Counted from the first letter of the stretch, positions 1,771 through 37,878 are shown. The stretch: DNA of 48,513 nucleotides from Burkholderiales bacterium (GCA_964202115.1 CAXNIK010000001.1:1-48513); one strand, 5' to 3'. A program made the numbers and translations. Notes: a model not told the origin generated them from the sequence alone.

Positions 1771-1828
1771 CGACTTCAAATTGAATGAGCTTTCGCAGAG
1801 TGTGGCTGGCGCCGGGAGACATTGTGCC
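1771..1828 (-). repeat. Copy A (right half only) of the repeated upstream element
   Basis: Minus-strand sense: GGCACAATGTCTCCCGGCGCCAGCCACACTCTGCGAAAGCTCATTCAATTTGAAGTCG. It shares CCCGGCGCCAGCCAyAsTC..CGAAAG....ATT..ATTT with the copies at 2966, 5924 and 13447. It lies ~70 nt upstream of the Bug start at 1698. Confidence 0.7.
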
Positions 1829-1919
1829 TCGCTACGAGGTGTGGCTTGAATTCCTTTTGAGCAAGTTCACGAAGAGCAGACACCATCATCTGCTGCTCTT
1901 CTGCTGATTTGAAATCCAT
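1776..1919 (-). pseudogene. Acyl-CoA dehydrogenase N-terminal stump (~28 authentic codons, then reads into the repeat element)
   Basis: Hand translation gives GAAAGGAGATTGAA-ATG, then MDFKSAEEQQMMVSALRELAQKEFKPH LVARHNVSRRQPHSAKAHSI*. The first ~28 aa look like a typical ACAD N-terminus (MDFxLTEEQQMxRDxVRxFAxKEIAP) and the RBS is perfect. Similarity ends where repeat copy A begins. Confidence 0.6.
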
Positions 1920-2947: not shown

Positions 2948-2965
2948 GGTCGGCTTCAAGAGAAA

Positions 2966-3031
2966 GGACAGGAAATTCAATGGGCTTTCGGGGAGTATGG
3001 CTGGCGCCGGGAACAGCCGTCAATCGCCGAT
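2966..3031 (-). repeat. Copy B of the repeated upstream element
   Basis: Minus-strand sense: ATCGGCGATTGACGGCTGTTCCCGGCGCCAGCCATACTCCCCGAAAGCCCATTGAATTTCCTGTCC. About 59 of 68 hand-aligned positions are identical to copy C. It contains the ATCG-G-CGAT palindrome, TTGACG-N18-CATACT, and a GGCTG/CAGCC hairpin. Confidence 0.8.
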
Positions 3032-3039
3032 CGTGGCGG

Positions 3040-3165
3040 TCAAGTTGAGGTAATGGTTGGACTGTCCCGTGCGCCGGTCAGCAGCGTGAACGCGACGAGG
3101 GCGCGGTCATGGCGCTGAATCGGGCTCTCTGCCGTCATCAGGGTGATGATACGGTTTCCATGCTG
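3040..3165 (-). pseudogene. Internal fragment of a tyrosine recombinase/phage-type integrase
   Basis: The minus-strand reading directly after the Bug stop is QHGNRIITLMTAESPIQRHDRALVAFTLLTGARDSPTITST*. The RxRALxxxxLLTGxRxS block is the conserved box-I region of tyrosine recombinases. The fragment has no start and ends at repeat copy B. Confidence 0.55.
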
Positions 3166-4211: not shown

Positions 4212-5912
4212 TCAGATGTCAATCTTCTTGGTGGTCGGAAACCCGAGATGGCCGTTGTGCGCGAATACATAGCCATTGGTGCGCAGCGGATCGCCCGATA
4301 TGGCGATCATGTACTGGTCTGGCGACCAGACCAGCGGCACTTTGCGATTCGGGTCATCGGACTCCGCAAAAAAAGCAGGTATCCGTCCCGCCTTCGCTTC
4401 CTCGGTGAGGCTCCACACCGGCCGGCCGTTCCAGTCGCGCAGCTGGCGCTCGAACTCCCATGCCGGAATGCGCGCGTGGTCAAACACGTACTGCCGGATA
4501 TCGTCCTTGGACCAGCCTGCCTGGGCGATCGTTTCAGCGAGGATGGGCGTGAGCATGATGAGCGGCCGCAGCGTTCCATATCCCCGTCCATGCGAGAAAC
4601 ATATCTGCCAGGAAATGTGGCGGAACATGGCATCGGACAGATAGTCGCAGAGCTGCTCGGGCGTATGCCCGGAGAGTGAAGCGATAAGGTCGCCGCCGGT
4701 ATAGCGCGCCACGGTCACCGTGCTGTCGTCGCGCGAAAAACCGGCCTCCATGGCGATGGACTTCCATCCCAGCTTCTCCAGCGCCTCCTCGTTCTCCGGC
4801 ACCACCACCCGCCAGGTATTGCCGTAGGTGCCCTTGTCGGTGCGATGCGGCAGGAACCCCGCCACATTGCGCAGGAACAGGCGCCAAAAGCGGCCCACGG
4901 AGGTGTTCGGCTGAAAACCGTCGCGCATCACCCCCTGGGTGTAATTGAAGCCGAAACGCTTGATGACCGGCCCGTTGAGGATGATGAGCGTTTCAGCGCC
5001 GGGGGTGTTGCCACTATGTTCCACGCCATAGCGCTTGTCGATCATGGCCTCGGCCAGCGCCAGCAGGATGGGCATGTATTCGGGACGGCAACCCGCCATC
5101 ACGCCGTTGACGGCCACGCTCCACACGGTGGCGGTGCGCCGGTCGGGCAACATCACGCCCATCACCTCGTCCGGCCGACGCCGGGTGTGGCTGAGGAACT
5201 CTTCGACGCGCGCCCTGGTTGGCGGAACGACGGGCAGTCCGTCGCCCCATTCATTCTTGATGAATTCCTCGTTGATCTCAAAGAAGCCGCCACGCGCAAC
5301 TATGTCGCGCGGACCAGGCTCCTCGTCCACCTCAACGCTGCTGGTGGCCTCGGTCAGGTTGGCGATGACGCAGTCAAGCGTGACGTTCATGACGTTGTTG
5401 TATATCTCCTCCGGGCTCTGAACCCCGGTGTGCCCGGGCACGTGCGCAAGCGGCATGTCCGGATAACCCAAGCCGACAGTGGTGGCTTTTGCCTGGCCCA
5501 TGAAGCCCGTGCACACCAGGGCGGCGGTGGGTATTCCGGCTTCTTCCGCTTTCTCGTTCGCCCGCAGCACGGCGGGCGTACAGCTCCCTCAAGCAGCCAT
5601 GCCGGTGATGGCGGCGGTCACTCCATACTCGCGTAAAGTTTCGGGCAGTTTTTCGACAACCTCATGCTCGGTCGGGCTGTGGATGTTGCCAATATCCTTC
5701 CAACTCACGAACTTGACGTTCTTGAAGCGCTTCTGGATGCCTTCCCGCAGCGCCTCGAACAACTGGTCGCCACGAAAGCCGTAGGTCCACATCTCGGCAA
5801 TGACGGCATTGTCCAGTGTCGCCAGCCGCTTGGCCAGTGGTTTGCGCCGGCCCTTGCGTTCGGCACGCGGCCAGTACGCTTCGTAGTAACCGTCGTTTTC
5901 CGCTTGCGCCAT
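4212..5912 (-). CDS. Candidate selenoprotein: UGSC-motif redox domain fused to an uncharacterised GDGLPxVPPT/AGCRPEY domain. It is 566 aa if UGA 5589-5591 is decoded as Sec108.
   Basis: Track ORFs 5589..6125 (real start ATG 5912, AGGAG 5 nt upstream) and 4212..5570 are in the same frame. They are separated only by TGA plus 6 sense codons: ...VTAAITGMAA-TGA-GSCTPAVLRANEK.... The downstream ORF has no ATG start. A SECIS-like hairpin follows the UGA. Confidence 0.6.
5559..5578 (-). promoter_or_regulatory. SECIS-like stem-loop 10 nt downstream of the in-frame UGA
   Basis: mRNA sense: UGA GGGAGCUGUA CGCCCGC-CGUGCU-GCGGGCG AAC. This is a perfect 7-bp GC-rich stem with a 6-nt loop containing GU. 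It can extend by U-A, G-C and U-G pairs across an A.A mismatch. Confidence 0.5.
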
Positions 5913-5923
5913 GTTTGCTCCTG

Positions 5924-6043
5924 AGGATAGAAAATCCAATAGGGCCTTTCGTCGAGTATGGCTGGCGCCGGGTGCAGCCGTCAATCGCCGATTATGGGCC
6001 GGCTGCGTCGCGATTTGCAGAAAGGCCCGCCGACTAGCACCCA
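5924..6043 (-). repeat. Copy C (longest) of the repeated upstream element, directly upstream of the candidate selenoprotein gene
   Basis: Minus-strand sense: GGGTGCTAGTCGGCGGGCCTTTCTGCAAATCGCGACGCAGCCGGCCCATAATCGGCGATTGACGGCTGCACCCGGCGCCAGCCATACTCGACGAAAGGCCCTATTGGATTTTCTATCC, followed by TCAGGAGCAAACATG. The right 68 nt match copies B and D. The left arm GGGTGCTAnnCGGCGGGCCTTTCTGCAAAT recurs at 12302-12332. Confidence 0.8.
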
Positions 6044-6302
6044 GGCACTCATGGATAAGCGCAAGCAGCATGGCCTGGTGTGCAAGCGTGCACGCAAGTG
6101 GAAGGCAACGTCCAACTCCAGGCATCGATTACCCGTCGCCCTCAATCTGCTGGATTGACATCATGAGTGCGAGTGCGCAAACTTGACCTTGAGCTGACAG
6201 GAACAGGCTTGGGTCAACAGTTGCGAGTTTCCCGGGTTCCGATGGAGGCCTTCTTCTCTCCCGCCGACTTAAATTTCAACTTTCTTGGAGGAACGACACA
6301 TC

Positions 6303-7478: not shown

Positions 7479-7733
7479 GCCCGGGTCACCGGAAAACGTG
7501 AATGGAATACCCGTAAGTAACGGCGCAGGAATGCTGCTCGAGTAGCAGTCCCGAAATGCCTGAAGAATTCGCACCGGGGCGCCATGCATGGGGAAGATAT
7601 CGCCCTCAATCGCATGATCCCGAACCACGCGCATACTGCTCTCTCTCACCAGCCACTGACGGAACCGGAAAAAACAGCAGGACCAGCTTGATTCAATGAG
7701 TGCCGGGGAAACCATCAATCTTTCACGAAAGAA

Positions 7734-11147: not shown

Positions 11148-12125
11148 CTAATCGATTCTGATATTCCCCGCCTTGACCACCGCCGCCCAGCGCACCGTCT
11201 CCGCCTGTATGTTCTTCGCGAATTCCTCGGGCGTGCTCGCGACGATCTCCAGTCCCTGCTTGCCCAGGGTGGAACTGCCCTCGGCGGAGGTCAGATACTT
11301 CACCGTCTCCGCATTCATGCGCGCGATGATGGCGCGCGGTGTCTTCGCCGGCGCGAGGATGCCGGTGCCCGACTGCACCTGGAACTCGGCTATGCCCGCC
11401 TCCCCAGCCGTGGGCACATCCGGCAGAGCTGCCACCCGCTTGGGCGCGCTCACCGCCAGCATCCTCAGCTTGCCCGCCTTGACGAAGGCAATGGTGGTCG
11501 GCACGCCTATGGTCATGAGGTCCACGCGTCCTGCCACCACGTCGGTGAGGGCCGGGCCGGCACCCTTGAAGGGCACATGCTGCATCTGCGTCTTTGTGAT
11601 CATGGCCAGCAGTTCCGCTGCCAGGTGATTGATGCTGCCATTGCCCGAGGAGGCAAAGGTGAGCTTGCCCGGGTTGGCACGCAGGTGGGCGATCAGGTCC
11701 TTCACCGACGCTGCCGGCACACCCGGATGAACCACGATGGCATTGGGATTCATGGCGATGGACACAATGGGCGCCAGGTCGCGCTGCGGATCGAAGCTCA
11801 TGCTGTAGAGCGCCGGGTTGATGGTGAGCTGGCTGCTGGTTGCAAAGAGCAGCGTGTAGCCGTCGGGCGCGGCGCGTACCACCTCGTAGGCGCCGATGTT
11901 GCCGTTGGCCCCGGGCCGGTTATCGATGATCACCTGCTGGCCGAACACCTGCGACAGATGGGCCACGATGGGCCGCGCGATGTTGTCATTGCCGCCGCCG
12001 GCCGCGTAGCCATTGATCATGCGCACGGGTTTGGCGGGCCAGGTCTGGGCGGCGGCGGACTGGGACAGTGTCGCGGCCAAAGTGGCCAGGCCCAGCAAGG
12101 CCAGCGTCGGGATTCTTTTCATCAT
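11148..12125 (-). CDS. Bug/TctC-family periplasmic solute-binding protein
   Basis: Track ORF of 325 aa. MMKRIPTLALLGLATLAATLSQSAAAQTWPAKPVRMI, PDGYTLL, VPFKGAGPA. A strong AAGGAGGA RBS precedes it. Confidence 0.9.
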   Translation of the reverse strand: MMKRIPTLALLGLATLAATLSQSAAAQTWPAKPVRMINGYAAGGGNDNIARPIVAHLSQVFGQQVIIDNRPGANGNIGAYEVVRAAPDGYTLLFATSSQLTINPALYSMSFDPQRDLAPIVSIAMNPNAIVVHPGVPAASVKDLIAHLRANPGKLTFASSGNGSINHLAAELLAMITKTQMQHVPFKGAGPALTDVVAGRVDLMTIGVPTTIAFVKAGKLRMLAVSAPKRVAALPDVPTAGEAGIAEFQVQSGTGILAPAKTPRAIIARMNAETVKYLTSAEGSSTLGKQGLEIVASTPEEFAKNIQAETVRWAAVVKAGNIRID

Positions 12126-12242: not shown

Positions 12243-12332
12243 AGCCCCCTCGCTGGCAGGCCGGCATTCCAGTCAAAGTACCGAGCCGGCTGAAGGAAGA
12301 AATTTGCAGAAAGGCCCGCCGGATAGCACCCC
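12243..12332 (-). repeat. Copy E of the repeated element: well-conserved left arm, diverged core
   Basis: Sense: GGGGTGCTATCCGGCGGGCCTTTCTGCAAAT (12302-12332) matches the left arm of copy C almost exactly. The following ~55 nt (CAGCCGGCT..TTTGACTGG..GCCGGCCTGCCAGCG) align only loosely to the core. Confidence 0.55.
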
Positions 12333-12385
12333 AAGTTCTGGGCTAATTTTGAGTTGGCACAAATGGCGTTGTGCCCAAAATTGAG

Positions 12386-13378
12386 CTATTCCTCCAGCTT
12401 GATGTCGGCGGCCTTCACCACCTTGCGCCAGCGCTCGGTCTCGGCGACGATGAGTTCGCGGAACTGCGCGGGCGTGTTACCCACCATGAAACTCCCGTCG
12501 GCTTCCAGCGCCTTGACGATCTCGGGTGTCCTCGCGGTGAGAGCGAAGTTCTCGCTCATTTTGTTCACAATGGCAGACGGCGTCCCGGCGGGAACCACAA
12601 AACCCAGCCAGCTGGAGTAGTTGTACCCTGGCACCCCCTGCTCCGCGATCGTCTGCAACTGAGGTAGCGCGTGCGTGCGCCGATCACTGGCAATGGCCAG
12701 CGCGCGCACCTTGCCGGATTTGATCAGAGGCATCAAGGTTGTGAGCGCCTCCATCGCGACGTCCACCCTGCCCGCCACCAGATCCAGGGTCGAGGGTCCT
12801 GTGCCCTTGTAATGGACGAAAGTGACTTTCGTTCCCGTGAGGTTGTGGAACCAGGAACCCGCCATGTGACCGGCGCCACCGCTTCCTGAGTCGCCGAAGT
12901 TCAGCTTTCCGGGATTGGCCCTGGCGTAAGTCAGGTATTCCTGGATGTCCTTCGCTGGTACGGAAGGATTCACCACCATGACGGCGGAGCGCACACTCAT
13001 CAGTGATATGGGCGCGAAATCGGCGATTGGATCGAAGGGCAGATTCCTCGCCGTGGCTGCCATCATGCTGAAAGTCGACGGTACGATAAGCACGGTATAG
13101 CCGTTGGGCGCCGACTTCGCCACGAAGTTGGTGCCGATGACGTTGCCAGCGCCGGGCTTGAAGTCGAGCACAAAGGACTGCCCCATCAGTTCGGACATCC
13201 TGATGATGTAGAGCCGGACCTCGCGCTCCGTCGGCCCGCCGGGCGACGTCGCAGCCACAATCTGCACCGGCCGGGAGGGAAAGTTGGCCGCCGGTTCCTG
13301 TGCCGCAGTCGGGAGCGAGACTAGCGTTGATAGCATCAAAGCAGGCAACAGCAACCCTTGCCGATTCGTCATCATCAT
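12386..13378 (-). CDS. Bug/TctC-family periplasmic solute-binding protein
   Basis: Track ORF 12386..13390 starts at a GTG that lies inside GAGGAGAG. I prefer the ATG at 13378 (MMMTNRQGLLLPALMLSTLVSLPTAAQEPAANFPSRPVQIV). APNGYTVL and HYKGTGPS motifs are present. Confidence 0.88.
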   Translation of the reverse strand: MMMTNRQGLLLPALMLSTLVSLPTAAQEPAANFPSRPVQIVAATSPGGPTEREVRLYIIRMSELMGQSFVLDFKPGAGNVIGTNFVAKSAPNGYTVLIVPSTFSMMAATARNLPFDPIADFAPISLMSVRSAVMVVNPSVPAKDIQEYLTYARANPGKLNFGDSGSGGAGHMAGSWFHNLTGTKVTFVHYKGTGPSTLDLVAGRVDVAMEALTTLMPLIKSGKVRALAIASDRRTHALPQLQTIAEQGVPGYNYSSWLGFVVPAGTPSAIVNKMSENFALTARTPEIVKALEADGSFMVGNTPAQFRELIVAETERWRKVVKAADIKLEE

Positions 13379-13446: not shown

Positions 13447-13514
13447 AGGGACAGGAAATCCAAGGGGCTTTCGGGGACTATGACTGGCGCCGGGTGCAGC
13501 AGCCAATCGATTCG
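13447..13514 (-). repeat. Copy D of the repeated upstream element
   Basis: Sense: CGAATCGATTGGCTGCTGCACCCGGCGCCAGTCATAGTCCCCGAAAGCCCCTTGGATTTCCTGTCCCT. The palindrome here is AATCGATT. In the hairpin arm, C>T creates a G.U pair rather than a mismatch. Confidence 0.8.
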
Positions 13515-13585
13515 CGCGGCCTCACCGCCTCCACTTTGAACTCATCGGTGTACTGGCTGTCAGGTACGGACTCTTTTTTGCTCAT
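13478..13585 (-). mobile_element. IS3-family OrfA (transposase N-terminal) stump
   Basis: Hand translation from ATG 13585 gives MSKKESVPDSQYTDEFKVEAVR PRESIGCCTRRQS*. The Y(S/T)xEFKxEAVR motif is the hallmark start of IS3-family OrfA proteins. The reading runs into repeat copy D after ~22 codons. Confidence 0.5.
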
Positions 13586-13769
13586 TGTGGCGCCCGTTCA
13601 TCAGAAATTTACCTCCAATCTGATGTGCGCGAAACTATGGCAAGATCAGAATTGAGCCAGAAGACCGAGGTTTAGCGCTCCCCTTGCCACTGTACCCGGA
13701 GACAGGCGTTGATCCTTACACCAGCGCATTTCAAGCGGCCGTAATCATTTTCGAAAATTGGGGCATGAC

Positions 13770-15452
13770 ATGACCGACACTGATCCTGTGGAACAAAAGA
13801 CCAATAGACACAATGAGAAATTCCCTGCCGGAATATTCACGGAATTGATGCCGGGCGAATCCAATTTCGCGCCGCTCAGCCCGATATCGTTTCTGCGACG
13901 TTCCGCGGACCTGTACCCAGGGCATACCGCCGTGATCCACGGCGAAACCAGGATCACCTATGCGCAATTCCTTGCGCGCGCAAGGCGCCTGGCGTCCGCA
14001 CTGCAAAAATCCGGGGTTCGGCCTGGCGACGTTGTATCGGTCATGCTGCCCAATGTCCCGGCGATGCTGGATGCCCATTTCGGCATTCCCATGCTGGGCG
14101 CGGTGCTGAATACGATCAACACCCGCCTTGACGCCGACACCATTGCCTACATTCTCGACCATTGCGAAGCAAAGGTATTCATCGTTGACAGCATGTTCGC
14201 TGACGCGGCGGGCAAAGCACTGCGCATGATCGACAGGAAGATCCTGGTGATCGGCAACGATGACCCGGCGCACAAGGGTGACAAGGAACGCCTTGGGTCA
14301 ATTCAGTATGAGGAGTTTATCGACGGAGGAGATCCCGAGTTCATCTGGGCCCTGCCGGAAAATGAATCATCACCCATTGCCCTCAACTATACGTCGGGGA
14401 CCACGGGCCGGCCCAAGGGCGTGGTCTATCACCACCGGGGCGCCTATCTCAATACGATTGGAAACATCATTGGATGGCCGTTGCCAAGAAAAGCGGTTTA
14501 CCTCTGGACACTGCCGATGTTTCACTGCAACGGCTGGTGCTATCCCTGGTCCGTGACGGCGGTCGGCGGGACCCACGTCTGTCTGAGGGCGGTGGACCCT
14601 GCGGTCATTTTTTCGATGATTGTCGAGAACAACGTCACCCACATGTGTGGCGCTCCCACCGTGCTCACGATGCTGACTGGCGCGCCAGCGCAGGACAAGC
14701 GCGCATTTGCCCGCGTCGTTGACATCCAGACCGGGGGCGCCGCGCCGCCTGCCAAGGTAATCAAGGCAATGGAAGAAAACGGATTTCGCGTTACGCACAT
14801 TTATGGCATGACCGAGCTTCACGGCATCTCCACGCTGTGCGAACCCCAGGAGGCATGGAACGGCATGTCAATCGAGGAACGGGCGACCCAGATGGCGCGC
14901 CAGGGCGTTGGCAATGCCACTCTGGAAGGACACATCGTGGGAGACCCGGCGACTTGCGTCCCTGTGCCCAGGGATGGCAAGACCATCGGCGAAATTCTGG
15001 TAAAGGGCAATACCGTCATGCTGGGGTACCTGAAGGATCCGGCTGCCACCGCGGAAGCCTTCGCAGGCGGATGGATGCACACGGGTGATCTGGCTGTGTA
15101 CCATCCCAATGGCTTTGTGGAAATAAAGGACCGCAAGAAAGATGTCATCATTTCCGGCGGCGAGAATATTTCCAGCATCGAGGTCGAGATCGCCTTGTAC
15201 CGGCATGAGGCAGTGGCGCTCGCGGCCGTGGTAGCCCGGCCTGACGAGAAGTGGGGAGAGACCCCGTGTGCCTTCGTGCAACTCAAGCCCGGTGTAAGTG
15301 CTACAGAGGCCGAGCTTATTGCCTTCTGCAGGGAAAATATTGCGCACTTCAAGGCGCCAAAAACCGTGGTATTTGGCGCGCTACCGGTCACCTCCACGGG
15401 CAAGATCCAGAAGTACGCTCTTCGAGAGAGGGCAAAAAAACTCCCAGCCTGA
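13770..15452 (+). CDS. AMP-forming acyl-CoA synthetase (medium-chain / AMP-acid ligase II type)
   Basis: Track ORF 13758..15452, with an in-frame ATG at 13770. AMP-binding motifs LNYTSGTTGRPKGV, THIYGMTE, GWMHTGDLA and IKDRKKDVIISGGENI, with C-terminal GKIQKYALR. Confidence 0.9.
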   Translation: MTDTDPVEQKTNRHNEKFPAGIFTELMPGESNFAPLSPISFLRRSADLYPGHTAVIHGETRITYAQFLARARRLASALQKSGVRPGDVVSVMLPNVPAMLDAHFGIPMLGAVLNTINTRLDADTIAYILDHCEAKVFIVDSMFADAAGKALRMIDRKILVIGNDDPAHKGDKERLGSIQYEEFIDGGDPEFIWALPENESSPIALNYTSGTTGRPKGVVYHHRGAYLNTIGNIIGWPLPRKAVYLWTLPMFHCNGWCYPWSVTAVGGTHVCLRAVDPAVIFSMIVENNVTHMCGAPTVLTMLTGAPAQDKRAFARVVDIQTGGAAPPAKVIKAMEENGFRVTHIYGMTELHGISTLCEPQEAWNGMSIEERATQMARQGVGNATLEGHIVGDPATCVPVPRDGKTIGEILVKGNTVMLGYLKDPAATAEAFAGGWMHTGDLAVYHPNGFVEIKDRKKDVIISGGENISSIEVEIALYRHEAVALAAVVARPDEKWGETPCAFVQLKPGVSATEAELIAFCRENIAHFKAPKTVVFGALPVTSTGKIQKYALRERAKKLPA

Positions 15453-19584: not shown

Positions 19585-20478
19585 TCAGGCCGGTACCGCC
19601 ACCTTCTCCTGCTCGCAGCTATTGGCCACATCGCTGACCGTGGCGCGATGCATTTCGCGCACCCAGCGGAAGTCGTCGTACTCGGTGCCGCGATGCATGG
19701 TGCAGCGGTTATCCCATATCACCAGGTCGTGCTCGCGCCAGCGGTGGGTGTAGACGAACTGGCGCTGCGTGGTATGCGCGATCAACTGTTCCAGCAGCGT
19801 CTCGCTTTCTCCCAGCTGCATGCCGTCGATGCTGCCGATGTGGCTGGCCAGGTACAGGGACTTGCGGCCGTTCTGCGCAATGGTGCGGACCATGAGCTGC
19901 GGCACCGCGGCCAGGCGCTTCTCGTCGTCGGCGCTGAAGGCCACCTGCCCGGTGCGTTTGCGCGAGGTGGCGATGCTGTGCCGGGCGATCAGTCCCTGCA
20001 GGCGTTGTTTCATCGCCTGCGGCAGGGCGTCATAGGCGGCGCGCTCATCGGCGAACTCGGTGTGGCCGCCGATGGGTGCGACCTTGTGTGAGTAAAGAAG
20101 TGAGCATAGCGAGGGCCGGTGCTTGAAGGAGCTGTCGGTGTGCCACATCATGTTGGCCATCTTGTAGGCGCGCTGTTGGCTGTCCTTGTTCCAGATGCTG
20201 CCGCTGATGTCCAGGTTGGAGATGTCGCCCAGCTCCTTCCTGATGCGGTGGGGAAAGATGCCGTCGGTGCTCTTTTCCGTCTCCAGCGGGCCGAAGCGCG
20301 CGGCGAAGTCCAGGTGCTGATCGGCGTTCAGCTTCTGTCCTGGAAAAATCACCACGGCGTATTTCCAGAATGCCGCCTGGATGGCCGACCAGTCCTCCGA
20401 TGAGATGGGCGCGGACAGGTCGACGTCGCCGATTTCCGTGGCGAAATTCGGGCTGATGGGATAAATGCTGATGCTCAT
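19585..20478 (-). CDS. TauD/TfdA-family Fe(II)/2-oxoglutarate-dependent dioxygenase
   Basis: Track ORF 19585..20505. I prefer the ATG at 20478 (MSISIYPISPNFATEIGDVDLS), preceded by AAGGAG. WHTDSSF (the HxD iron motif) and WDNRCTMHRG are typical of this family. Confidence 0.85.
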   Translation of the reverse strand: MSISIYPISPNFATEIGDVDLSAPISSEDWSAIQAAFWKYAVVIFPGQKLNADQHLDFAARFGPLETEKSTDGIFPHRIRKELGDISNLDISGSIWNKDSQQRAYKMANMMWHTDSSFKHRPSLCSLLYSHKVAPIGGHTEFADERAAYDALPQAMKQRLQGLIARHSIATSRKRTGQVAFSADDEKRLAAVPQLMVRTIAQNGRKSLYLASHIGSIDGMQLGESETLLEQLIAHTTQRQFVYTHRWREHDLVIWDNRCTMHRGTEYDDFRWVREMHRATVSDVANSCEQEKVAVPA

Positions 20479-20585
20479 GAAAGCTCCTTTGGCGTCGCAT
20501 GGCACGGTCTGTGGCCGTGCTGCAGGATCAGCTTAACGTTTTTTGATGCTTATCGCAGGCTGCCAGCGGTTGCGCGGCCGCGGTG

Positions 20586-25957: not shown

Positions 25958-26125
25958 GGTGATCCTTCGTTTGGAAGCGACAGGCATGACTCAAGCTAAC
26001 ATCCGCAACCGTCGAAATCCAATGATTTTAAAAAGGCGGCTGGCCGATGACAACTCGAACCAAGCCGACCTGGCCATCTGCAGGAACTTGAAACGGTCTG
26101 CTGCCCTCAGGCAGCTGCCTTGAGC

Positions 26126-35671: not shown

Positions 35672-36634
35672 TCATTCCGCCCGAATGCCGATATCCCTGA
35701 TTAATTTTCCCATCGTTGTCATATCCGCCTTGATTGCTGCAGCGAACTCCTCCGGCGTGCTTCCTACCGTGTCGATCCCGATCCTGGAAAACCTTTCCCG
35801 TGCATCGGACGTATTCAGAATTCGCACTATCTCCTGGTTCAGTCGGGTGACAATGGAAGCAGGCGTCTTTGCCGGTGCGAACACACCGTAAAACGAACTG
35901 GCGCTGTAACCAGGCAAATCTGCCGATGCGCTCGGCACTCCCGGATAGAGAGCAGACATCTCCCCACCAGTCACGGCTATTGCTCTCAATCTGCCTGACC
36001 TGGCATGCGGCGCCACGGCCGTGGCGGGCGCGAATATCACTTTCACGTCTCCCGATAACACTCCATTGATTGCCTGTGCTGATCCTTTATAAGGGATGCG
36101 CCGCAAATCAACGCCAGCCATTACCTTGAACAATTCTGTCGCCAGATGGGATCCAGACCCTGCGTTTGCCGATGCATAATCGATTTCGCCCGGCTTTTGC
36201 TTTGCCAGCGTGATCAACTCCCTGACTGATTTGACAGGCAAGGATGGGTGCACAACGATAAGGTTGTAGGCCTTGTGTGTCAGGGAAACTGGAGCGAAAT
36301 CTCTTACAGGATCATAAGTGGCCTTCTCGGTCAGGAATGGCCAGAGCCACATTACGCTGGCTCCAACATGCAGCGTATGTCCATCAGGCGCGGCCTTGGC
36401 GACATGGTCCGCCGCAATCCCCGTGCCGGGACGGTTTTCAACTACGACTTGTTGTCCCACACTTTGCGGTAGCGCCTGCGCAATGACACGAGAGATGAGA
36501 TCGGTACCCCCCCCAGCCTCCAAGGTCACGATACGAATGACTTTACTGGGGTAGCTTTGCCCATGGGCCAGGCTGGAGATGAAGAACAATAAATGGAACA
36601 AGAACCACAAGACACTTGATTGGCGCACAGGCAT
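35672..36634 (-). CDS. Bug/TctC-family periplasmic solute-binding protein
   Basis: Track ORF 35672..36706. I prefer the ATG at 36634 (MPVRQSSVLWFLFHLLFFISSLAHGQSYPSKVIRIV), after AAGGAGC. Confidence 0.88.
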   Translation of the reverse strand: MPVRQSSVLWFLFHLLFFISSLAHGQSYPSKVIRIVTLEAGGGTDLISRVIAQALPQSVGQQVVVENRPGTGIAADHVAKAAPDGHTLHVGASVMWLWPFLTEKATYDPVRDFAPVSLTHKAYNLIVVHPSLPVKSVRELITLAKQKPGEIDYASANAGSGSHLATELFKVMAGVDLRRIPYKGSAQAINGVLSGDVKVIFAPATAVAPHARSGRLRAIAVTGGEMSALYPGVPSASADLPGYSASSFYGVFAPAKTPASIVTRLNQEIVRILNTSDARERFSRIGIDTVGSTPEEFAAAIKADMTTMGKLIRDIGIRAE

Positions 36635-36822
36635 ATCGATGCTCCTTGAGTCTTGGATAAGCGCACATAAGGGTGGTGAAAGCAGCTTGCGTCTTAGGGT
36701 CTGCAAACGTGCAGGATCATCCCCATACGATCGGTTCAGTTCCCTCTTACTGTGTTAAAAAAACAAACTATTATGAGTTCATCTTCAACCAACCTGTCAA
36801 GGCGAAGATGGACACGACGTGA

Positions 36823-36960
36823 ATGCAACAGTTCGAGGACTATGTGACGATGATTGCCGGCCACCTTGGACACGCGGATCGTGTGGGACCGTTTCGCGGC
36901 TACTGCGCGGGGCTGATGCTGCCTGGGGTGCGCAAGAGCGTTGAGCCGATGGGCGTATAG
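36823..36960 (+). mobile_element. IS701/IS4-like DDE transposase N-terminal stump (45 codons)
   Basis: Hand translation gives MQQFEDYVTMIAGHLGHADRVGPFRGYCAGLMLPGVRKSVEPMGV*. The xxLGHxxRxxxxxxYxxGLxxPGxRKSVEPM block is characteristic of IS701-type transposase N-termini. It is cut off at 36957-36960. Confidence 0.55.
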
Positions 36961-37178
36961 GGATTTCAAACCACGTTTTCTCTGATGCGCGACGGTATCG
37001 CCGTCCCGAGAGGCGGTCAATCACGCGGTCTGTGGCAAAGATTCCCCGCTCTCAATGACGATTCGCCCCCTGAATCGACCCGAATTGCCTCACTTCGATG
37101 CGCGCTGCCCCCCGCCACACGAGCACAGGTCGTGAGGGATTGTCAGCCTCGTTGCGGAGCCGTTCTTGCCTTCGGGGA

Positions 37179-37634
37179 TCAGGCGGCTTCGAACAGATCG
37201 AGTCGCCGCGCCGGTGCGCGCGGGGGTGCCCTGGCGGGCAGACCCAGGTGAGTGAGGATCTTCACGATCACCACAGGATCCGCGATGGCGGCGATGATCT
37301 TCATGTCGCCCCCGCACTGCGGGCAGTGTTCGAGGTTCAGGTCGAACACGCGCTTGAGCAGGCGCGCCCAGCCGATGCGCGCCGATGGGTGTGCGTGCTC
37401 CTCGGTGTGTTCACCGGGTTTGTGCGCCGGGCCCGGCACGACCGCCGCGCGCAGCCCGATCGGAAACGACAGCACCCACTGCCTGACCTGCACCTGGGGA
37501 ATCACCTCATCGACAAGGACCGCAGCGCTCTGGGCCATGCGCCGCGCACCGCACGAGCGGCAAAACCCGCGCCGCTTGCAGGAAAACGCCACCAGCTTCT
37601 CGTGCGCGCAGTCGGCACAGCGAGCGTGCATCAA
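37179..37634 (-). mobile_element. IS91-family (Y2/HUH rolling-circle) transposase remnant lacking its central catalytic domain
   Basis: Track ORF of 151 aa. The zinc-binding N-terminal block CADCAHEKLVAFSCKRRGFCRSCGARRMAQSAAVLVDEVIPQVQVRQWVLSFP is joined directly to the C-terminal block RIGWARLLKRVFDLNLEHCPQCGGDMKIIAAIADPVVIVKILTHLGLPARAPP. Full-length proteins are about 400 aa. Confidence 0.7.
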
Positions 37635-37878
37635 ACCGAGAAAGCGCCCGCTACTCCCACTCGATTATTAACGGCATATGTAAGCCGTTGTCGCATTTAG
37701 AAGTTCGTTCTGCGAGTAGCATTTTTACCGTCAGATTTACCGTCAATCTCATCTGATCCCCGAAAAAAGCGCTTTGATCGCTGCGCCGCTTGGAATTCTC
37801 AATATGTGGTGGATCTGCTCAACTTGCAGCGTAACATGCACCTTCGCGGCACAAGCATTTCCACTTTGCGAGGAGGCA

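Follow-up and report, generated by a model that had tools for sequence, protein, structure and literature searches.

Short repeats upstream of TctC genes in a Burkholderiales contig are very likely remnants of the right end of an IS91-family insertion sequence

Insertion sequences (ISs) of the IS91 family have no inverted repeats, generate no target duplication and possess distinct oriIS and terIS ends; they insert beside a tetranucleotide of the CTTG/GTTC type (with CTTC and CTCG recorded as minor targets for IS91), need just ~82 bp of their right end, and frequently fail to terminate, resulting in one-ended transposition (PMC13181058). The oriIS of ISCR27, GCGGTTGAACTTCCTATACC, is found 236 bp after the stop codon (PMC8894482), that of ISCR1 is GTGGTTTATACTTCCTATACCC (PMC13023784), and other IS91 elements have a 17-bp oriIS located 167 bp after the coding sequence (PMC5737581). 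The oriIS region of ISCR1 also contains two experimentally proven outward promoters, which increase downstream expression 13-15-fold (PMC6218425). Here, we analyzed a 48,513-nt stretch of DNA from a Burkholderiales bacterium (GCA_964202115.1 CAXNIK010000001.1:1-48513; the window), which contains five copies (A to E) of a short repeated element, all on the minus strand, 11-160 nt upstream of operons with TctC/Bug genes, and within 13 kb. These copies are very probably decayed oriIS-side right-end fragments of an uncharacterized IS91/ISCR-family element related to ISPps1. Their coordinates, with positions on a nucleotide profile of the element and nhmmer E values, are as follows.

5925..6051, minus strand: copy C, the sole full-length (~128 nt) putative right-end fragment of the window, 11 nt upstream of the operon of a probable UGSC-family selenoprotein and a TctC protein
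2964..3036, minus strand: copy B, 5'-truncated, profile positions 60-132, E 2.5e-20, ~18 nt upstream of the TctC gene 1961-2947
13447..13511, minus strand: copy D, 5'-truncated, profile positions 68-132, E 6e-17, ~70 nt upstream of the TctC gene 12386-13375
1777..1818, minus strand: copy A, internal fragment, profile positions 83-124, cut at both ends
12280..12341, minus strand: copy E, left half alone, profile positions 5-64, followed by diverged sequence, E 2.6e-11

A repeat had first been proposed from the sequence alone (the sequence-only reading), with four copies on the minus strand, and it is real. A repeat search of the window returned a family of four direct members at 1771, 2966, 5927 and 13449; a 27-nt core pattern, CCCGGCGCCAGYCAYASTCNNCGAAAG, had exactly four sites in the window, all on the minus strand, and none in 100 shuffles; and a core profile built from the four copies matched them with E values of 3e-19 to 3e-23 and nothing else in the window (nhmmer). 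Two weaker look-alikes that had been pointed out, at 26013-26054 and 7565-7600, were recognized neither by the core profile (E<10) nor by the long-form profile (E<1). With the latter profile, window 6051-5924 of copy C aligns to positions 6-131 (E 9e-39). Copy A, correctly described as partial, is moreover cut at both sides, since a ~90%-identical relative can be aligned from TGAAGTCGG onward and not before; its -35 element and last ~8 nt are gone, and its E value is 2e-4 for the long profile and 2.6e-19 for the core profile. The recurrence of the left arm of copy C at 12302-12332 was also borne out, with 28 of 30 bases identical, a score reached by none of 300 shuffles; it belongs to copy E, which sits ~160 nt upstream of the TctC gene 11148-12122. 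The distance from the element to the start codon, given as 25-70 nt, is actually ~11 (C), 18 (B), 70 (D) and 80-81 nt (A). The natural unit exceeds 68 nt, measuring at least 128 nt in copy C and 223-261 nt in copies from other metagenomes.

As the sequence-only reading had stated, the copies are more alike than their neighbors. Within the window they are pairwise 78-86% identical in DNA, with 62/74 identical positions between B and C and 54/65 between B and D, compared with 32-46% identity between downstream TctC proteins (46% for B vs D and 32% for A vs B); the 14 TctC paralogs of the window share 14-50% protein identity with each other. Downstream of copy C, the UGSC-family selenoprotein gene comes first, followed by a TctC gene.

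Copies of the element also occur in other organisms. A six-frame peptide query led to P0144, a histidine-kinase open reading frame (ORF) that begins with 42 residues translated from a full-length copy. On the corresponding contig (L102), the element occupies positions 172-301 (E 7e-39), 65 nt before the real start codon, and is 81% identical to copy C (105/129 positions). A search with the N-terminus of P0144 against 1.8 billion representative proteins gave 15 matches, 14 of them convincing and sharing the consensus AVLGVLFGGPFCKSRRMPAQNRRLTAAPGVSHTPRKPIGFPIL; similarity among the 14 always ends directly after FPIL, the translation of ...TTTCCTATCCT. These are 14 further copies that lie read through by ORFs in other metagenomes. 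Their contexts vary: copies precede a complete SBP_bac_5 gene and a secreted-protein gene, or abut fragments of zinc-dehydrogenase, SDR, PIN protein and trypsin-like protease genes. Another full copy was found in contig L103, and pairwise identity between organisms (~80%) is similar to that within the window. The family is dispersed, with a precise gene-proximal end and a variable far end.

Other searches returned part of the element or nothing. Exact scans with the core pattern found no copy in GTDB representative genomes, JGI metagenomes or IMG/VR, nor did scans of IMG/VR with other motifs; the long form and the L103 unit had no match among plasmids (blastn), and 80 loci around UGSC homologs (≤64% identical) showed no copy and no useful synteny. 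The left arm was found in two JGI contigs of one locus (L100/L101), where 80 nt, from the left arm through TTGTCGGCTGCAC, are 91% identical to copy C and the similarity stops after those 80 nt. In L101, which derives from another organism, this left part (1268-1347) lies upstream of an alkyl-sulfatase gene; a 26-nt match to the right terminus (4675-4702, E 0.07 on its own) is separated from it by 3.3 kb that contain alkyl sulfatase, TerB and a 192-aa ORF. The two parts could be a coincidence of scraps, a split or cargo-carrying copy, or an occupied attachment site.

The longer copies connect the element to a transposase. Contigs L102 and L103 have ~110 nt more in common to the left of the element, which form the end of an ORF, ...NDPQ(W/L)DSSAQPAPE(I/V)E(F/L)DQRIAW and stop; in these longer copies, the final 23-44 codons of an ISPps1-like transposase gene of the IS91 family come before the element. 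The peptide ...PAPEIEFDQRIAW, including its stop, matched the exact C-termini of annotated IS91-family (ISPps1) transposases on plasmids of Delftia, Comamonas, Rhodoferax, Diaphorobacter and others (tblastn). In the reciprocal search with the ISPps1 transposase TnpA (518 aa; tblastn), L102 2-149 corresponded to residues 475-518 (E 1.6e-10) and L103 to residues 496-518. The element lies immediately 3' of the end of this HUH (Y2) IS91-type transposase gene in both contigs, and the window copies are truncated before that point. The repeat has its origin in the right end of an IS91-family element.

The terminus points in the same direction. The element finishes in ...TTGRATTTCCTRTCC (in L102 and L103 ...CCATTGRATTTCCTRTCC, also written ...GCCATACTCCCCGAAAGCCCATTGRATTTCCTRTCC(T)), 147 nt (L102) and 185 nt (L103) after the transposase stop codon. 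Two ISPps1 copies (L105 and L106) end 186 nt after the stop in GCGGTTGAATTTCCTATCCG (...GCCATACTTGGCCTCATGCGGTTGAATTTCCTATCCG) and then diverge from each other at once; a hand count gave 15/20 matching positions between the termini of the element and this terminal 20-mer. The termini are also similar to the oriIS sequences published for ISCR27 (PMC8894482) and ISCR1 (PMC13023784). The corresponding motif in the window is listed below.

5925..5944, minus strand: terminal oriIS-like motif of copy C, CCCTATTGGATTTTCTATCC, with equivalents at 2966-2985 (copy B) and 13449-13468 (copy D)

Compared with the ISPps1-type IS91 elements of Comamonadaceae/Pseudomonas plasmids (e.g. pKV29 and pOS401), L102 and L103 have an ORF end before the element that shares 52-68% identity with the transposase C-terminus, a non-coding tail of similar length (147-185 nt vs ~186 nt), and in common the terminus ...TTGAATTTCCTATCC, preceded at ~28-30 nt by the GCCATACT motif. 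In contrast, no alignment is possible over the ~150 nt that lead from the stop codon to the terminal motif, the final base and the adjacent tetranucleotide differ, and no intact parent of the element was recovered. ISCR1 and ISCR27 are alike in having a ~230-bp non-coding region 3' of the transposase gene that ends in a conserved oriIS (PMC8894482, PMC13023784). A candidate tRNA-like module upstream of the element was rejected, as ARAGORN finds no tRNA there and the module is the 3' end of tnpA.

All copies that extend as far as the terminus stop at one and the same base beside the host gene, whereas the inner side is cut at varying depth; the outer boundary is precise and the inner one ragged. 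No terminal inverted repeats were found: a single 9-nt internal pair occurs in copy C, none in copy B or L101, and the pair is not kept in L102 and L103. Likewise, no direct repeat indicative of a target-site duplication flanks the full copies C, L102 and L103, although this is a weak test given that the terIS end of the parent is not known. Hand reading of the four nucleotides that follow ...CCTATC, where a target CTTG, GTTC or GTCC would be expected, gave CTTT (B), CTCA (C), CCTC (D), CTTC (L102), CTTA (L103) and CTTT (L101), so that the terminus is almost always followed by CT, a pattern that extends to the peptide-level copies (FPIL). One or two imperfect subterminal palindromes would also be expected in an oriIS region; of the candidates, AATCGGCGATT is kept in C, L101 and L102 and has one mismatch in B and L103, GGCTG/CAGCC is not kept, and covariation is absent. 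The constant ori end together with the ragged inner end is compatible with rolling-circle or one-ended transposition and is no proof of it. In L103, a near-perfect hairpin with a 21-bp stem (313-364; GCCTGACGCCAGGAGAGTGGC ... GAGCACTCTCCAGGCTTCAGGC) separates the transposase stop codon from the 128-nt element; it is removed by a 45-nt deletion in L102 and copy C, and L101 retains its right arm alone. This hairpin may be the terminator of the transposase gene or a subterminal palindrome of the IS.

Several points weigh against an IS91-family origin. The tetranucleotides next to the terminus are not the canonical CTTG/GTTC, the canonical fourth base being unseen. A transposase gene adjoins none of the window copies, and the link depends on L102 and L103, which come from other organisms. 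Outside the last ~20 nt and the GCCATACT motif, the DNA similarity to ISPps1 has no significance of its own (nhmmer E ~1). Finally, copies B and D border at their left truncations on relics of other mobile genes, and these truncations are thus explained equally well by later deletions as by rolling-circle biology. With these points included, we consider the explanation as a whole, remnants of IS91-family ends that arose in the manner proposed below, to be probable.

The sequence directly left of the short copies is unrelated from copy to copy and in each case is a fragment of another gene.

13509..13648, minus strand: IS3-family relic, left inverted repeat and first ~26 codons of orfA, fused to the left edge of copy D
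3060..3138, minus strand: tyrosine-recombinase (integrase) relic, ..RHDRALVAFTLLTGARDS, an internal gene piece left of copy B
1827..1919, minus strand: probable acyl-CoA dehydrogenase N-terminus relic left of copy A (Pfam Acyl-CoA_dh_N, E 0.057, profile positions 2-26)

The IS3 relic shares 75% identity over 28 aa with a Burkholderia IS3 orfA (tblastn), and its DNA homology stops at CGAATC, which identifies GAATC/GATT in copy D as the fusion point. The palindrome AATCGATT that had been noted in copy D is accordingly a junction artefact, with GAATC contributed by the orfA relic and GATT being the first piece of the element. The element is not the right end of this adjacent IS3, whose right inverted repeat is unrelated. 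Copy B is flanked on its left by 29 nt and then by the integrase relic; the relic's peptide, ...RALVAFTLLTGARDS, has homologs (P0002-P0005) with 63-85% identity, one of which is named integrase/recombinase XerD by its source. Homology of the integrase relic to the left arm of copies C and E was considered and discarded, the similarity not being significant. For the relic left of copy A, the Pfam match is weak evidence.

Related strains differ in which copies they carry. A sister-strain contig (L094) is 98.7% identical to window 5629-3137 and lacks window 3136-1776 apart from a 31-nt relic of TctC_B; one of its junctions falls on a shared CCCTGAT microhomology and the other ~3 nt past the truncation point of copy A. 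Positions 2484-2524 of L094 correspond to window 3137 / 2297-2267 / 1775, and the integrase relic, copy B, most of TctC_B, the acyl-CoA dehydrogenase relic and copy A have been lost. L094 is a direct example of how short gene relics arise in this locus, by microhomology deletion. In contigs L096-L098 (~90% identical), the TctC_A ortholog lies behind an EthD gene and the sequence in common with the window starts only from TGAAGTCGG (~1778 downward), so copy A is absent from these contigs and doubly truncated in the window. The contig of a 96%-identical strain (L099) carries copy D, the IS3 relic and copy E; its copy D differs from that of the window at 3/65 aligned positions, all of which have the family consensus in L099, and this rate is the same as in the flanks. 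There is no copy upstream of the closest UGSC homolog (78% identical). Because copy D diverges like its flanks and copies vary in presence among relatives, the copies are young and not specially constrained. The sequence-only reading had called the element much younger or much more constrained than its neighbors, and it is the first of these options that applies.

A sigma70-like promoter in the element, facing outward, was predicted at the following position.

5955..5984, minus strand: sigma70-like pair TTGACG-N18-CATACT of copy C, outward-facing; the same pair occurs at 2994-3023 in copy B (promoter scan)

The pair had been read in this way before. The promoter scan flagged it in copies B and C, and it does not hold for copy D, which has TTGGCT-N18-CATAGT; L103 has TTGACA-N17-TATAGT, and the consensus pair is TTGACR-N17/18-NATAST, ~30 nt from the tip. 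Across 8 copies, the TTG of the -35 hexamer is present in 7/7 and A2, A4 and T6 of the -10 hexamer in 7/7, from four unrelated loci. The spacer block CCCGGCGCCAG is invariant inside the window, whereas the spacers of L102 and L103 carry changes at 4-7 positions. Ten genes begin shortly after a copy (~11-160 nt), and each of them has the orientation of that copy. We therefore tentatively propose, at close to an even chance, that the most likely function of the copies is the donation of this predicted promoter to downstream genes. ISCR1 provides the precedent: its outward promoters PCR1-1 and PCR1-2 (POUT) drive co-oriented downstream genes (PMC6218425), a feature that in the element is predicted only. 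The element differs from ISCR1 in its hexamers, TTGACG-N18-CATACT, which come closer to consensus, in its host, an uncultured environmental Burkholderiales-like bacterium, and in its neighboring genes, which encode TctC solute-binding proteins rather than resistance.

The copies may instead be inert scars, that is, IS91-family end remnants without function whose position and orientation reflect insertion sites and tolerated deletions; we regard this as a serious, if somewhat doubtful, possibility. In its favor, copy A, which has no -35, and copy E, which has lost the whole promoter part, nevertheless persist, losses that also speak against a promoter; copy D substitutes at the flank rate; strain L094 lost A and B without replacement; several copies in other metagenomes abut gene fragments rather than intact genes; and a single sigma70-like match is not significant, 9 being seen in 14 kb vs 4.8 expected. 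Moreover, GC(C/G)ATAC is also conserved in ISPps1 and in a further IS91-family relic near 37 kb of the window (described below), so its conservation may reflect transposase recognition and not a -10 box. Against inert scars stand the invariance of the key hexamer positions at four unrelated loci while the spacer drifts, the co-orientation of all ten downstream genes, and the proven promoters of the ISCR1 oriIS region (PMC6218425).

Three further explanations involve no IS91-family end. A host regulatory module, consisting of the promoter and operator of a TctC regulon whose copies resemble each other through selection or through gene conversion between the upstream regions of tandem paralogs, would agree with the presence of all five window copies before TctC-containing operons within 13 kb, with the overlap between the AATCGGCGATT palindrome and the -35, and with copies C and E being alike in the left arm and unlike in their right halves, a mosaic that could be due to conversion. 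This explanation is largely refuted and now very unlikely: in other organisms the element is found before genes for a histidine kinase, an alkyl sulfatase and a peptide-binding protein as well as before gene fragments, its left side continues as a transposase gene, both of its boundaries are abrupt, the closest UGSC and TctC_A homologs have no copy in front of them, and excess constraint is absent. The reading of the palindrome as an operator likewise found no comparative support. A classical miniature inverted-repeat transposable element (MITE), a non-autonomous derivative of a DDE transposon carrying a promoter as Correia or ERIC elements do, would be small, dispersed, intergenic and non-coding, as the copies are, and would occur in several genomes with ~80% pairwise identity and mostly copy-specific differences. 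It is nonetheless highly improbable given the absence of terminal inverted repeats (the one 9-nt internal inverted repeat of copy C not being kept in L102), the lack of a target-site duplication at three full copies, the one ragged end, and a left side that enters an HUH-type (IS91) rather than a DDE transposase gene. We give scarcely any credence to a structured cis-regulatory RNA, a small RNA or an integron attC-like recombination hairpin, to which the 5' leader position, the small palindromes and the 9-bp long-range inverted repeat of copy C might point. No Rfam family matched at gathering score in the window or at E≤1 in L101-L103, fold z-scores range from -1.5 to +0.8 on either strand without a common fold, in an alignment that takes in copies of other organisms GGCTG/CAGCC and the 9-bp inverted repeat (GGGCCTTTC/GAAAGGCCC) show no more pairing than shuffled columns do, the element tolerates a 2-nt indel and truncation, and there are no R''/R' core sites. 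The GGCTG-N10-CAGCC hairpin of the sequence-only reading fails on the same grounds, and it is not retained in the copies of other organisms. A coding function was also discarded: a single frame is open in all copies, but it is broken by the 2-nt indel in C. The element is mobile-element DNA; of the options originally offered, a recombination site is loosely apt, the end being one where an HUH transposase would nick, and both the autonomous cassette and the MITE have fallen. The original observation was mostly right and its interpretation partly supported, the element being mobile, young and possibly promoter-bearing, and neither a MITE nor an operator cassette.

Returning to remnants of an IS91-family right end, the intact parent would have been arranged in the order terIS, HUH transposase gene, ~150-190 nt of non-coding DNA and terminus. 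A sharp outer end and a ragged inner end would fit this arrangement because only the oriIS end is required and precisely defined in the family. The element would have inserted, or been carried, upstream of TctC-containing operons several times, and its inner cuts would result from abortive or one-ended rolling-circle events or from microhomology deletions, as seen in the locus, leaving short relics. The survivors would be the last 42-128 nt, namely ~128 nt in C, 65-73 nt in B and D, an internal scrap in A and a left-half scrap in E. A surviving piece with an outward sigma70-type promoter would transcribe the co-oriented downstream gene, as POUT of ISCR1 does, and this would be why the remaining tips all point into genes. 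It seems unlikely that the solo oriIS tips are still usable for one-ended rolling-circle replication with the transposase supplied in trans by an intact copy at another place in the genome, shuffling and amplifying TctC/Bug modules in the manner of ISCR elements. For such gene capture, tips that retain the terminal ~65-128 nt would suffice (C certainly, B and D perhaps), and each event would mobilize the gene module on the inner side of a tip, giving an array of tip, TctC module and tip.

Remnants of the delta-ISCR2 type commonly retain the oriIS end, in direct orientation between captured genes. A truncated ISCR2 delimits, on one side, a mosaic resistance region in which a complete ISCR2 is present as well (PMC6506621). 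In comparison, the remnants described here are far shorter (42-128 nt), have no transposase coding sequence left, and lie on a chromosome-like contig rich in catabolic genes. The copies can also be compared with the putative mobile promoters (PMPs) of Matus-Garcia, Nijveen and van Passel (2012), defined by ≥80% identity over ≥50 nt upstream of genes dissimilar in DNA; 210 PMPs of that survey were known insertion sequences (PMC3575422). The pairs B-C, B-D and C-L102 fall within this definition, with downstream proteins 28-46% identical or unrelated. Whereas PMP is a descriptive label that implies no mechanism, the source element is identified here.

The window holds another relic of the same family.

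36955..37637, minus strand: second, different IS91-family relic, an internally deleted tnpA with residues 69-131 joined to 395-467

This relic matched ISPps1 TnpA at window 37637-37239 (E 1.5e-16 and 1e-6; tblastn). Its stop lies at ~37179 and is followed by 224 nt ending in an oriIS-like terminus of its own, GTGGTTTGAAATCCCTATAC, and the relic is found ~250 nt upstream of the TctC gene 35672-36706, on the same strand. This second relic adds to the case for an IS91-family origin of the copies.

Some neighboring features were recorded along the way. The UGSC gene downstream of copy C (window 4212-5912, minus strand) consists of 107 codons, an in-frame TGA and 452 codons; both halves match Pfam UGSC, gene callers split it into two ORFs, and it is probably a selenoprotein gene. 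More than 3000 UGSC homologs occur in metagenomes, mostly in uncultured Burkholderiales and often adjoining TctC genes. Two Logan contigs from independent assemblies (L003 and L004) both stop at window 3079, 43 nt before copy B, which fits a repeat or strain variation at the junction interrupting assembly graphs. The overlapping contig L001 extends past the window on the left, and ~5.5 kb out it has a 124-nt stretch (13785-13908) with 91% identity to window 19780-19902, which lies in or close to the TauD-family gene 19585-20505; the stretch is probably a segment of a paralogous TauD gene. The IS end is also translated into spurious small ORFs or false N-terminal extensions (P0144 and P0145-P0159), all with ...GGPFCKSRRMPAQNRRLTAAPGVSHTPRKPIGFPIL. 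Such recurrent artefact ORFs, of which the first 42 residues of P0144 are an example, could be masked during annotation.

In summary, the main value of these results is a correction: an apparent promoter cassette is very likely the origin-end stump of a rolling-circle insertion sequence, which would explain why its gene-proximal edge is sharp and its far edge ragged, why it is young, and why gene relics surround it. The element would represent a new, uncharacterized lineage of the well-known IS91/ISCR kind, in uncultured freshwater and soil Betaproteobacteria. Its ends are found repeatedly before TctC transporter genes, and two different IS91-family relics take up this position in one contig. 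If the predicted outward promoter is real, the element would be an environmental, non-resistance counterpart of the POUT-driven gene activation of ISCR1. Should gene capture take place as well, with promoter tips re-wiring the arriving genes, it could contribute to the very large TctC paralog families of Burkholderiales.

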